Positions 1-6,000 of a DNA stretch of 17,379 nt are shown piece after piece (position 1 is the first letter of the stretch; every line of letters begins with the position of its first letter). The position numbers are program-made. The DNA lies in IMG/VR virus record IMGVR_UViG_2690316318_000021, positions 1 to 17,379 of that record, one strand, 5' to 3'. This DNA is from a virus (taxonomy: Duplodnaviria; Heunggongvirae; Uroviricota; Caudoviricetes).

Positions 1-3000
1 TTAAAGCTGCATCAGCCTTTCCACCAGTTTATCTCTGCGAACAACAAACCAACCATTGGCTCTCGCCAGTTCCAGCCATGACTCAAGGGAAATAACAATA
101 TCATCATCCCGCAACTGAATTGTGGAAACAGTGACACCGCCTCGCTGATAACAGAGAACTCGCGTGTCGTAACTTTTCTGGCATGAAGCTGGCGCTGACG
201 GATCCTTTTGTCTGAAATAGCAGTCTTCCAGCTTTTCGAACACATCCCACGCCTGATCGGTTTCGAGCATTTTTGCATGACGGGCTGCTCCGCGTTCTGT
301 CCAGAGGATGAGGGAGCGGGCTTTCGGGGAAATTTGTAACCCTCTTAAAGATGGTTGCAAATTTTGTGAGTTACTTAAAGTAACCCGCAAATTTTGTGAG
401 TAGTTTAAAGCTACCCGCAATTCTTTAAGGTCATTACCAACAACTTTGAAAAAGTGTTTCCCTTCAACGAAGCGTACTTTGTTCTCATGATGATTCTGGC
501 GAATGCGCACCGGCTCAGTGCCGTAAAGCTGCGCCAAAAGTTCGGTGGTAATAACAGGAATCTGGTTATGGGTGATCGGGGAGAGAGTTTCAACAGAAAT
601 TTGAGTTGTCATAATGACGCCCTCTGGTGGTTTCTTAATAACTCACCACCGACGACGCCAATCATCTGGTGGTGAACTGTGCAGGGTTGGCGTAACCGGG
701 AAACCGACCGGCGCGGATCTCTCCGCCCCCACACAGCCCACCATAATTCAGATGTGCGCGTGCATACGACAATAAAAAACACGCTCGCGGCGTGTATCTG
801 TCGCGGTCTCTATCCAGGACGCCAATCCCGACGCCAGATTTTGCTGGCGCGTGAGGAATATAGCCCCGGATAACAGATTGAGTCAACAGACGGTTTTTAG
901 ATCCCCGGAAGAGAATGCATCACGCATCGGCAGATAGAGCATAAACTCTGCCATTTTCAACCACGCATCTATGCGATTACGGCACGTGGCGTAACACCAC
1001 TCAGGGTGTGAATCATTCAGCAATTCAGCCATTTTGCGCTTAGTCATCCCCCTCCCTTCATATCGTTGCCGGAGGATACAAATCAATCCTGGGTGTTCTG
1101 CCAGCACTTCACTAATCACCCGATCAATGCATAACGCCTCTGCATCAGTACAATGCACCAGCCAGCTTTTTTGCTTGCCGTTGATCATATCCCGCAAAAA
1201 AGCCTCAAGTTCAGGTTTGTCCAGACCTGCTTTTTTCATCCTCCGGAGCGCCTCGTTAATTGCCGTTTTTGTCAGCTTTTTAGAGGTCAGCAACTGGTTG
1301 AACATATTTCCCGTCTTACCGCCGCCAATATACGACCAGCGCCCCCACATGCGCAGTTTTCCCTGAATCCAGACACTTTCCAGCGTGGTGAGACGAAGGT
1401 GTTCCCCGCTTTTGCCTGTATTTGTTGGGTAAATCATAAATAACCTTCCTTTCTCCAGATTTCTTGTGTGCGAAAAACACCTTCTGCATGCATCAGGCGT
1501 AATTCTTCTTTGGTGTAATCGCTGGTTTTTACCCGCCCGTCGATTAAATCGTGGCATGAGCTACAGGCAATCGCTGCCTGCATATCGTGTGGTTTTGTCG
1601 CTGTTCCGCACGTCCCCGCCAGCCTGTAATGCGCCAGCACAGAAGTTTCGGGATTGTGATTGCAGTAGCCAGGAATTCTGACGGTGCACATCTGCCCCCG
1701 CGCCGCTTTACGTAAATCCACCATTACGCAAACTCCAGTAACTGCGCGGCCACATTTTCGACTTCCTCCGGAGAGGAAAATTTACGGAACAGGATCCAGT
1801 TCCACAGCACATTAAGTACAGATTTATAAACCTGCTGAAACTCGGTTTCGTCCATGTTCGCAAAAGCAATGGACTTCGCCCGACGCCCGCGGCTACCGTC
1901 TGGATAAAAATGCTCGGTGTAGAAGCCGGCCTGAATGGTCACCCACTCGCGGAAAGCGTCAAATGATTTGAGCAATGCCATATCCTGAGTTCTGCGTGTC
2001 GCAACGGTATTCAGATATTGTTCCGCGGCATCACTCAGAGCTGGCGTATGTTCCCTGCCTACTGATTCACACAGGTAATCAACGAAGCCGAACACCATTT
2101 CTCGTTCGCGAGGTGTGATCGCCCCACCGCTCGGAGTCCAGTAATCGAATCCAAGTTGCAGAAGTTTGAAAAAACGCTTGTGAAATGCATAGTTACGCAC
2201 ACGCTTAAAATCAGCATGTATCCACTCGCCTATTTTGATTTGATGCAGAAAATCGCAACTCTCCGGTGTCGCCGGGAGCAGTAAGCCGGAAGATGTTTGT
2301 TTAACCAGTTGTATATGCGCCATCGTAGTTCTCCGCTGGCGCAGTAGAATGGGTGTTCAGCCCGTTGTGTAGTATACCAGAATCAATGCCAATACTAACA
2401 GGATGCCCTGACTCGCAATTCATCTGGCAATCTATCATTTCCCATAATATCACTATTCCTCATCGGTAAAAAAATTGCCTTGCGACCATTCCGATACATC
2501 ATTGCTTTTTGTGTATCAGGGAAATAATCCATTTCAACAATAACTGACAGATCATCACAACGTATGACTGCAAATTTAGTGCTAAAAGATTCCTGTGATT
2601 TTTTCACGATGCCTCCAAGCCTCTAAGGAAAGAGGTTTATATCTACCTAGAGGCAAAAATATATATACACAGAATGTTTATTTCATGTTGTATATTTGAT
2701 TGTTTAATGTGCAGGTGCAATGACTTTTATTTATTGCCGCGCATATAATCAAATATGTGATCATCTTTCATCCTTCGTATTCGACAGACAATAAAAAACC
2801 CGCCGAAGCGGGTTAGGTGCGGGTGCGTTGAGGATGCCTGACACATCAGAGGTGGCGAGGGATTTCTCCCTCGCCTGGTCTCTTACTCCTCAGGTTCGTA
2901 AGCTGTGAAGACAGCGACCTCCGTCTGGCCGGTTCGGATTCGTACCTCACAGAGGTCTTTCCTCGTTACCAGTGCCGTAACAATGACGGTTAAACAGATG

Positions 3001-6000
3001 ACAATCAGGGCGATTAACATCACCTTTTGCTGCTTCATAGCCTGCTTCTCCTTGCCTTTCGGCACGTAAGAGGCTAACCTACATTTGTGAGACATAGATT
3101 GGGCCTCAGATTAATGTTAAGCGTCTTGCAGGACGCGTAATGTTAACTGGGGCTTTTCTCTATCTGCCTTTGGTGGCATGCCCGAGGCAGATAGCCTCAA
3201 GCACCCGCAGCAATTCTACTTAACTATCCTTTTCCCGCAAATCGTTTTTATCCCCAGCGGCAAATCGAATACACCACCAGCGCCACCGCCAGTGCAATAC
3301 CTACTGTTGCGAATGCCTCAGGCCAGGTCATCGATTCATCTCCGGCGGTTCTGGTAGTGGCATCCAGTGGGTTACATTGCGGCTCTGTGTTTCGAAGAAC
3401 TCCTCACCATTGCGGACAATATCAAAAAACTCACCGTCCCGATATTGCGCATAAAGAACGAATGCGCCATCACATAAAATAATGACGTGCTGACCATCAT
3501 TTGGCATTCGCTCACTACAGCTTATCCAACCATCCTGAGTTACCGGAGGAGTGCCCGATAGCGCGGTCTGCTCCAGTGATGCTTTTACAAACCACGCGGC
3601 CTGAACTATTACGCCATGAATCCAGCGCAAATCAGCATCGAGATCTTTCTTTTTCATCTTTTCGCCACTTAAAGCCTGGCTTATGTGGCTGCGTACCAGG
3701 TTTTCATGTAATTCCTTCGCATCCTCAATGGTAAAGCCACCAGGTAAACGACCCGGAGTTACCGGAGAGTTGCCAGCCAGCGCGTTCAACCTGTAAGCCT
3801 GGCTTACAGGTTCGGCACTATGAAGCATGGCAGCGCGGCAGGCCTCTTTGAGTACCCAGTCAACAGCGTCTTTCCATGCTCCTGTTTCGACTGGCGGATT
3901 TTCACGCTTAACCTGTTCATAAAAGCGCACCGCTTTAACCAGTCCGTCCGGCGCTGCCTGCCCTGTCTGCGCCCTGACCCACGCTACTCGTGCCGGATTC
4001 ATATGGCACATGTTGTGCCCTCTTTCTTCATGGTAATGCTCTTTATCCTCGTTAAACGGCAACACCTCATTCAGACCGGCACTTCTGAAATCAGCGTGTA
4101 ATTGTTCCAGTGCCTCTTCGCAAGGGGCACCAATTAATGTGAGATAATCGAAAAGATTGGCGCATAAACCATAATTTTGAGAAAACACTCCTCCGGGTTT
4201 CGCCCCATTACTCAGCCACAAATCATAAGCAATATAAAACCCGTAAAGCTGTTGTCTGATATTTCCTTTAATTTCTTGCATTATTTATTACCGCCCTTTC
4301 TGGCGGCCTCCTGATGTTCTGAGGGTGCAGGAATCCCTCCGGTTAAGGATTTAATAAAAATCGTTTCTGATTTAAATCTTCAGTATTTAGTTGTTAGTCG
4401 GTTTATAGCCTTTATGCTTCGGCCTTATTTCTCAGCCATACACAAACCGGGCCATCTTCGGTGTCATGTATTGAACCAATAAACCATCCATTGCCCTCTG
4501 GTCGTTCCGGTTCCCATGCAGAAATATCAGCATCACACGCATCAAGGTCAGCACATCCTTCATCTCTGAAGCAGAGGACGTATTGAAGATTATTTTCCTC
4601 CATCCATGCGTTAAACTCTTCCGTTGAAATAAGTTCTCTACCATCACAGAATTTTTCATATTCAGGATGCGTCCAGTAGCCATATTCATCACGTACTACT
4701 GGTATTTCTCTAATTTCATTCATTTCTGTTCTCCCACGTTTTCAGACTTTCACCACAGAACGGGCAAAAACACATTGCAACACCACGACCGATATATTGC
4801 CCAGAGTGAATTTGAGCAATATCTATGCCTGACTCGCCGGTGTTTATGTTCACACGTTCCGGGATAAATATGCCTTTACTCTTGAATGTTGGATTTCCAT
4901 ATTCGAGAGATTTTGCCAAAGCCGCGCACGGTTCTATCTGATTGCCATTAACCTGACATTTTGATGCGTTCACAGTACCACCTCCTGAAAATTTCCCCTC
5001 CAGAAAGCAAGCACGCGCTGCATAGCTTCGCTCTGACGGCACTCGCGACAAATTATGTTCTGTCGTCTGTCGTAACGACGTATTTCGCCATCTGGCAATG
5101 AATAAATCAGGTCAGGGTCGCTCTTCTTTTTCACTGCCGCTCTCGACATTTTTTTGCAGGCTTTTATCCAGTCCTTACGAGCCTGCTCCGAAGGAAATAT
5201 TCCATGTCCTGAACCATATACTGCGCCACTAACTACCAGCTCTTTCGCCAGAACTTCTATCAGGTGTCTCGTTGCTCCGGTTTCATCCTCCAGTTGCTTA
5301 CGTGTTTTCCTCCCATCTCTGCGTACCAGTTCCACAATACGCGCCTTCAGTTGCTCCCGATATTCAGGTGTAAAAACGTTTCTCATAAGCGCCTCACTTT
5401 TCCGACACAACGCGACTGGAGGAATCGACAATCTGTCGGACAATATCCCGGTGTTTATTCAGCTCCCGCAGTGCGGCACAGACTCGCTCCCACTTCTGGA
5501 CATGATTTTTCGCCCGGCGCAGTTCGCGGTTTGCCAGATGCAGCGATGGCAAAATCAGGTCATCGGCTTGTGTTTCGGTGAACGATGGCAGCGACTGCAC
5601 AATGTCCGCCACAGTTCCTGTTTTAATTTCTTCCTGTATTGCAGCTTCCGGCGCTGGTAACGCAACACCAGATGGCTGAGGAAAGGCTTTACCACCATTT
5701 CCCGTTACCGATGCGGCTTTCGGCTCTGCTGGTAAATTATCGTCCGGCATGCAGTAACGAAATTTACCGTTCTGATTTACACGAATCAGACGCCCTTTGC
5801 TGATTGCCATTGCCAGCGTTGAAGCTACTTTGCGTGATGTAGTACCGAACAACGTAGCCAGTTCATCCGCCGTTTGTGGTCCGCGTTGTTCAATCGTCGC
5901 GGTTAAATCGCACTCTGAGATTTTCGCTACTGTTGCTGTGGTGGTTTCTTCCGGCAGTTCTGCCTGCGCTGGCTGTTCCTGCTGAACGTTGTTATCAGCC

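Follow-up and report, generated by a model that had tools for sequence, protein, structure and literature searches.

The 17,379-nucleotide (nt) stretch of Caudoviricetes DNA from IMG/VR virus record IMGVR_UViG_2690316318_000021 (positions 1 to 17,379, hereafter the window) carries a hok gene with its leader on the minus strand. We are highly confident that positions 2787-3240 (-) represent a complete and probably functional hok/mok/sok type I toxin-antitoxin cassette (Table 1). Judged from sequence, it combines a toxin of the HokD type with a regulatory region of the hokW type, and it sits in the early-right (nin-like) region of a lambdoid, Rac-like prophage. Toxicity and Sok expression are inferred from homology to the tested hokW-sokW pair (PMC8621323). 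An earlier note on this DNA had spotted the element correctly. It is an ordinary HokD/HokW-type element and is counted as already known, because cassettes of this type were already annotated in the 933W genome record and characterised in 2021, and the exact toxin is named HokD in NCBI.

Toxin and leader

The product of 51 amino acids (aa) matches the Pfam family HOK_GEF (PF01848) with 81.7 bits against a cut-off of 22 (E=2.7e-23) and PHROG 251, 'MokW-like host killing', with 2.6e-32. The exact protein carries the name HokD in NCBI, on 48 contigs. The HOK_GEF match bears out the Hok coding sequence (CDS) proposed in the earlier note, and so does inspection of its Shine-Dalgarno (SD) sequence, AAGGAG at 3053-3048 (-), which is located 9 nt ahead of the ATG.

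The region upstream of the toxin is recognised by the Rfam model RF01794 ('sok') at 3206..3033 (-) over the full model length (positions 1-157 of 157), with 119.9 bits against a gathering score of 59 (E=2e-28). Despite its name, RF01794 models the hok-sense leader: K-12 hokC, 933W hokW and an R1-like plasmid are all matched on the hok strand, and in the control loci this is the strand opposite to the annotated SokC and SokW. The RF01794 search of K-12 hokD gave no match. The alignment to known hok loci that had been called for beforehand identifies the upstream region as a hok leader, collinear with 933W from the promoter to the fold-back inhibitory (fbi) box. At the sequence level, this covariance match and the collinearity with 933W mokW/hokW/sokW support the proposal that the copy keeps a mok leader and a Sok-like antisense RNA, unlike K-12 hokD.

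The 5' end of the predicted mRNA was set by the start of the RF01794 match and by homology to the R1 mRNA 5' end GGCGCUUGAGG, the 3' end by the terminator. The untranslated leader is only 111 nt long (3206-3096). The hok -10 box lies 6 nt ahead of the predicted transcription start G3206, and the predicted promoter is identical to that of 933W at 27 of 28 positions. TAGAAT placed 6 nt before GGGTGC is kept in most of 41 upstream contexts, while a few contain TAAAAT, TAAGAT or TAAAGT. Both stems reported earlier in this region exist, at other positions than given: the 10-bp stem is formed by 3194-3185 and 3169-3160 rather than lying at 3154-3188, and the 5-bp stem by 3136-3132 and 3125-3121.

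Predicted fold of the mRNA and conservation of the tac-fbi pairing

In the fold of 3206->2793, the first 12 nt of the mRNA, the tac box, pair with fbi (2833-2821) in 12 base pairs with one bulge and an ensemble probability of 0.99. The duplex amounts to -21.5 kcal/mol. In this closed fold the ucb box (3155-3149) pairs with the mok SD GAGG (3107-3104); this pairing is part of the minimum free energy (MFE) structure, while the Rfam consensus structure contains the tac-ucb pairing. Removing the 3' end beyond the 2875-2854 hairpin switches tac to an adjacent segment (0.73). This behaviour agrees with the established model of R1, in which the tac/fbi lock with ucb over the mok SD is followed by 3' processing and refolding, after which Sok binds and RNase III cleaves (PMC9841398). 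For the R1-like plasmid locus, which encodes a Hok identical to R1 Hok and served as control, the same fold and partner switch are obtained. The differences in tac and fbi between the two loci are compensatory, with GGGUGC/GCACCC here and GGCGC/GCGCC there.

The family was sampled from 80 IMG/VR prophage loci encoding a 98%-identical Hok, most of which carry tac, Sok promoter, fbi and terminator. The 64 distinct sequences used comprise the window and 63 full-length relatives, the latter taken from these loci, from 933W and from two chromosomes and one plasmid of E. coli. Pairs were counted on the MFE structure of the window, a structure that derives from one of the 64 counted sequences, and 95.2% of structure cells were paired compared with at most 41% in slid controls. 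Five pairs are changed on both sides, with 0.9 expected (0 of 500 shuffles). Pairing is complete (100%) in the tac-fbi helix. The fbi box, 13/13 identical to 933W, likewise has 100% of its cells paired, and its variation falls on the bulged base. In the 10-bp leader stem (helix 2), one A-U pair is replaced by a compensatory G-C pair in 4 relatives. The hok CDS is near-invariant, with an entropy of ~0.02 bits per column. As a side observation, the hok Tyr47 codon stands in a TACG context (window 2897-2900, -), and this motif is invariant in 64/64 aligned sequences.

Several observations weigh against the assignment of a complete and functional cassette. Among 2000 dinucleotide shuffles of the 3' untranslated region (UTR), 28 attained the energy of the tac-fbi duplex, which is only modestly significant when taken alone (p~0.014). 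As shuffling gives no more than this, the support for the lock is taken from conservation and covariation. The published open state with tac-ucb pairing was not reproduced by thermodynamic folding after 3' truncation (probability 0.0003), and the enforced tac-ucb fold lies 3.9 kcal/mol above the MFE. The tac-ucb pairing is likewise missed for the R1-like control (0.01), and we therefore regard the shortfall as a limit of the method. A consensus promoter scan called neither the hok nor the Sok promoter. Both deviate from TTGACA/TATAAT, the hok -35 box matching the consensus at only 3 of 6 positions, and with the scan below threshold for both, the two promoters were assigned by homology. Finally, the window cassette lies in the nin region, whereas that of 933W lies at the right end of its genome (58.4 kb of 61.7 kb), so that the role of the two may differ.

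Predicted Sok antisense RNA

The predicted Sok consists of a 14-nt single-stranded 5' tail over the mok start codon, a long terminator-like hairpin and a U-run. Its fold of -29.2 kcal/mol (z=-5.3) was matched in stability by 0 of 200 shuffles, and its shape is that of sokW and of K-12 SokC. The putative promoter inside mok is identical to the sokW promoter of 933W at 29 of 29 positions. Its -10 box TAACCT is the element that Takada et al. (2021, PMC8621323) replaced with GAGCCG by means of primer YO-421, giving a promoter-less form with sokW silenced. The duplicated motif described in the earlier note is indeed present, as TTAACATT (AATGTTAA on the plus strand) at 3147-3140 and at 3120-3113. 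The duplicated AATGTTAA motif and the 5-bp stem are the two arms and the tip of the predicted Sok hairpin.

The most variable stretch of the cassette is 3098-3079 (-), a patch shared by mok codons 2-5, the loop of the Sok-target hairpin and the 5' tail of the predicted Sok (3087-3100, +). Column entropy in the 64 sequences is 0.85 bits at 3098-3089 and 0.43 bits at 3088-3079, compared with a mean of 0.13. The patch occurs in 17 variants, and the majority can still form a hairpin. Since an E. coli genome has 2 matching places in the median and as many as 11, the patch may be a specificity determinant that limits cross-talk.

Probable stabilising hairpin, fbi box and terminator

The 3' hairpin that the earlier note had written as GGCGAGGGA/TCCCTCGCC exists at 2875-2854. 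It had been placed as a fold-back element, but this function belongs to the fbi box further downstream, and the hairpin itself is rather a probable 3' stabiliser. By analogy, it is likely to act as a stop for 3' exonucleases that stabilises the processed mRNA. In R1, toxicity is lost when substitutions weaken the final stem-loop of the truncated mRNA (PMC9841398). Across the family, one pair of the hairpin (helix 16) varies between A-U, G-U and G-C, and another is changed on both sides.

The intrinsic terminator was also read correctly beforehand, its stem spanning 2814-2797 and its T-run extending to 2787. It was found in 69 of the 80 related IMG/VR loci and is absent from 933W. Like the nin-region terminators of lambda, it would double as a nin-region terminator against un-antiterminated transcription. 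Rfam matches of the hok 3' UTR (2793-2880) to isrK-like (31 bits, cut-off 50) and rsmX-like RNAs were rejected as a generic resemblance to two hairpins followed by a terminator.

mok reading frame

The mok ATG (3095-3093) is preceded by GAGG at a distance of 8 nt, and its open reading frame (ORF) spans the hok SD and CDS, the same layout as in the annotated mokW and mokC. In NCBI, the exact 70-aa product is listed under Escherichia albertii with the name 'Hok family toxin', in keeping with the ~93% identity of the window to E. coli genomes. The in-frame upstream ATG had been noted earlier as a peculiarity relative to plasmid R1. The start codon and its 70-aa ORF are there, but they are not unusual: mokW and mokC are in frame, and the 70-aa fusion is found in 54 of the 64 sequences, with a 19-aa out-of-frame mok in 7. 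In the R1-like plasmid locus mok is in frame, too. In-frame mok was hence rejected as a novelty, since mokW, mokC, the R1-like plasmid and most relatives share it. The frame of mok varies even among close relatives (e.g. related loci L015, L025, L033; L005).

For R1 itself, mok appears to be out of frame. The substitutions G176T and T315A are among those that create premature stops in R1 mok (PMC9841398), yet in the hok frame G176T alters the hok start codon and T315A gives Hok Y48N. According to the published view, it is the translation of mok that matters and not the Mok product, and a variable mok frame fits this view.

Table 1. Coordinates of the hok/mok/sok cassette and the adjacent upstream ORF in the window
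Feature	Position	Strand	Detail
27-aa hydrophobic ORF MTWPEAFATVGIALAVALVVYSICRWG	3248..3331	-	ATGA: start codon overlapping the DUF551 stop codon
Predicted hok promoter	3213..3240	-	-35 TTGCGG 3240-3235, 16-nt spacer, -10 TAGAAT 3218-3213
Predicted full-length hok (mok-hok) mRNA, about 415 nt	2787..3206	-	RF01794 start, terminator
tac box GGGUGCUUGAGG, mRNA 5' end	3195..3206	-	MFE pairing with 2833-2821; invariant in 64 distinct related sequences
10-bp leader stem CUAUCUGCCU/AGGCAGAUAG	3160..3194	-	MFE
ucb / anti-Shine-Dalgarno box AAGCCCC	3149..3155	-	pairs with mok SD (closed form) or tac (open form)
Predicted Sok antisense RNA, 71 nt	3087..3157	+	mapped from the annotated 71-nt sokW of 933W
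Sok-target (sokT) hairpin round the mok start codon	3079..3100	-	MFE stem-loop; complementary to the Sok 5' tail
Predicted Sok promoter, inside mok	3052..3080	+	-35 TTGCCT 3052-3057, 17-nt spacer, -10 TAACCT 3075-3080
mok leader ORF, 70 aa, in frame with hok	2883..3095	-	SD GAGG at 3107-3104
hok toxin CDS, 51 aa	2883..3038	-	Pfam PF01848, PHROG 251, NCBI name HokD
3' stem-loop GGCGAGGGA-GAAA-UCCCUCGCC, 9-bp	2854..2875	-	paired in MFE
fbi box CCUCAACGCACCC	2821..2833	-	pairs with tac; 20 nt downstream of the 3' hairpin
Intrinsic terminator AACCCGC-UUCG-GCGGGUU + U-run	2787..2814	-	stem 2814-2797, T-run to 2787

Proposed mechanism and role

The sequence elements described above are found in the window, and the steps that connect them are modelled on R1 hok/sok and hokW-sokW. 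The cassette would be transcribed from its own promoter (3240-3213) into an mRNA of about 415 nt, and during transcription the 5' tac box would fold onto an adjacent segment. Once the 3' end is made, tac (3206-3195) would pair with fbi (2833-2821) and lock the mRNA in the closed form, with ucb (3155-3149) over the mok SD. The closed mRNA would allow neither translation nor Sok binding. Slow 3' trimming to the hairpin at 2875-2854 would remove fbi, and the refolding 5' end would expose the mok ribosome-binding site together with the Sok target. Sok (3087-3157, +), transcribed from the convergent promoter inside mok, would then pair over the mok start region and block mok translation. Translation of hok would be blocked too, because it is coupled to that of mok, and the duplex would be cut by RNase III. 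If Sok synthesis stops, the pool of stable hok mRNA would be translated; possible triggers are prophage induction, loss of the element or shut-off of host transcription. Hok would insert into the inner membrane, and the cell would be killed or lysed.

The role of the cassette is most likely that of an aid to prophage-induced lysis and phage release, or to prophage retention, by analogy with Sp5. In Sp5, the toxic HokW is counteracted by sokW RNA in a manner partly dependent on RNase III and Hfq (PMC8621323). After mitomycin C treatment, sokW RNA is lost in a RecA-dependent way, and HokW then reaches the inner membrane (PMC8621323). Deletion of hokW-sokW delays lysis and halves phage release (PMC8621323). 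The window cassette may affect lysis timing or stability of the Rac-like prophage, as hokW-sokW does in Sp5.

The same molecular mechanism could mainly serve abortive infection or exclusion, in that an infecting lytic phage would stop host transcription and Sok would decay, so that Hok kills the cell before the invading phage has matured. R1 hok/sok on a high-copy plasmid cut T4 plating by 42% and plaque size by ~85% (cited in PMC8621323), and prophage-borne toxin-antitoxin systems are often defensive. The only prophage-borne member tested, hokW-sokW, aided its own phage rather than blocking others, and we consider exclusion possible as the main role but on balance unlikely. It is quite improbable, in our estimate, that the cassette is intact in sequence yet physiologically silent, a hitch-hiking module that releases too little Hok to matter. 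All regulatory boxes and the toxin are visibly constrained in the 64 distinct related sequences, the closest tested relative hokW-sokW has a measurable induction phenotype, and prophages show an about four-fold enrichment of hok genes (bioRxiv 10.1101/2025.08.07.668861). Silence would agree with the presence of the cassette beside many different upstream genes, the pattern of a mobile passenger, and with earlier tests of hokA, hokB and hokC that gave no post-segregational killing and no activation by rifampicin; in these tests, hokA and hokC came from other E. coli strains (summarised in bioRxiv 10.1101/2025.08.07.668861).

We also weighed whether the structured upstream sequence could be unrelated to hok and merely form the 3' or 5' UTR of neighbouring nin-region genes, as it lies between the DUF551 gene and hok in one co-oriented operon. 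This explanation is refuted, and we give it practically no chance of being right: the hok-leader covariance match is full-length and reaches twice the gathering score, the same leader accompanies hok behind at least 41 different upstream sequences, and it is missing exactly where K-12 hokD is truncated.

For the cassette as an aid to induced lysis, its orientation offers a further, rather doubtful elaboration. It lies in sense within the early-right operon, with the replication genes on one side and Q on the other. Upon induction, antiterminated read-through that starts at the early promoter would collide with the convergent Sok promoter and would give 5'-extended hok transcripts in which tac is not at a free 5' end, making Hok an induction-triggered lysis helper. 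If true, this collision would account for the RecA-dependent loss of sokW RNA, for which a link has been missing. As a separate part of the same doubtful proposal, the patch 3098-3079 would be a specificity code against cross-regulation among the several hok/sok copies within a genome.

The significance of the cassette beyond correct annotation is small. A fitting annotation would be a complete hok-mok-sok cassette with Sok at 3087-3157 (+) and fbi at 2821-2833, and not a lone 'HokD' CDS. A comparative study of cross-talk among hok/sok paralogs could draw on the variable Sok patch, the variable mok frame and the unannotated 27-aa ORF.

Upstream ORF and other features of the window

Contrary to the earlier description, the 290 bp upstream of hok are not devoid of ORFs: they hold a 27-aa ORF (3331-3248) in addition to the hok promoter (3240-3213). 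The 27-aa product has no match in Pfam, NCBIfam or PHROG, and the exact peptide is absent from a collection of 15 billion proteins. The ORF is unannotated in RefSeq, GenBank and PLSDB relatives. It is found next to the hok promoter in 27 loci, which represent 17 unique sequences with 933W among them; 3 of the 17 are disrupted. Its alternative codons divide into 22 synonymous and 22 non-synonymous. At the same spot, other hokD loci carry different hydrophobic C-termini.

On the same strand, the cassette is preceded by a DnaC-like replication gene, DUF1627, DUF977 and DUF551, and is followed by a 70-aa PHROG-1813 ORF, DUF1367, YbcO, a DUF1133/Q-like antiterminator and an antirepressor. Window-wide matches to recE/recT, integrase, RalA and RyeA/RyeB identify the prophage as Rac-like. 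Given the neighbouring genes and this type of prophage, 'nin-like region', the term used in the earlier note, is a fair description.

Further RNA matches were found in the window. RalA, the small RNA antitoxin of the Rac toxin RalR, matches at 15033-15211 (-) with 189 bits, and the window therefore contains a second RNA-antitoxin system. The SraC/RyeA - SdsR/RyeB pair matches at 16774-16918 on both strands (174 and 114 bits), near the far end of the window. On the minus strand, isrK (774-850, 75.5 bits), C4 antisense RNA (665-748, 66.7 bits) and the a1/b1 targets (811-863, 50.5 bits) are all above their gathering scores. These matches sit just upstream of an antirepressor-like ORF (1..612), and 665-863 looks like an RNA-controlled antirepressor module of the P1/P7 c4 or Gifsy-1 isrK type.

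Comparison with known hok loci

The paradigm of the family is hok/sok (parB) of plasmid R1. The window shares with it the tac-fbi lock, the ucb/mok-SD pairing, the putative coupling of hok translation to mok, the predicted convergent Sok promoter inside mok and the 3' stem-loop (PMC9841398). The likely out-of-frame mok of R1 differs from the in-frame mok of the window; R1 is a plasmid carrier, and there the role is post-segregational killing. HokW is 44% identical to R1 Hok (PMC8621323).

K-12 hokC (gef)-mokC-sokC is built like the window cassette: its mok is in frame, and the start of mok is overlapped by the annotated antisense SokC. Its leader matches RF01794 at 118 bits and lacks the 18-nt extension of the Sok hairpin. 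The hok CDS is identical to that of the window at 129 of 156 positions, and in the K-12 copy IS186 is inserted 20 nt past the stop codon.

For the regulatory region, the closest likeness is to hokW-mokW-sokW of the Stx2 phages 933W and Sp5, the latter a Sakai prophage (AF125520; PMC8621323), which is collinear with the window from 84 nt upstream of the promoter, including the 27-aa ORF, to fbi. The tac box, leader, putative Sok gene, in-frame 70-aa mok, hok and 3' hairpin are all shared, with an overall nucleotide identity of ~92% (106/111 in the leader and 143/156 in the hok CDS). The two loci differ in mok codons 2-5, which correspond to the Sok 5' tail, and in the Hok C-terminus, which is the HokD-like FTAYEPEE in the window and FVDYESEK in HokW. 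After fbi, where identity drops to 12/28, the window has an intrinsic terminator and 933W has none. The 933W cassette is located next to L0136, at the right end beside a YgiW-like gene.

For the toxin, the likeness is to K-12 hokD (relF) of the Qin cryptic prophage, to which NCBI gives the same name, HokD. The two proteins are identical in 50 of 51 residues (A6V) and the CDSs in 151 of 156 nt; the 3' hairpin is conserved at 21 of 22 positions, and fbi is present. In K-12, hokD is fused behind relBE, and homology is lost ~15 nt upstream of the ATG, where relE abuts. The window contains no relBE, its upstream neighbour being the DUF551 gene. In contrast to K-12 hokD, which is without promoter, tac, mok and sok, the window copy has them all at the sequence level. 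HokD-type toxins usually carry the full regulatory RNA apparatus, and the relBE-hokD arrangement of K-12 is the exception.

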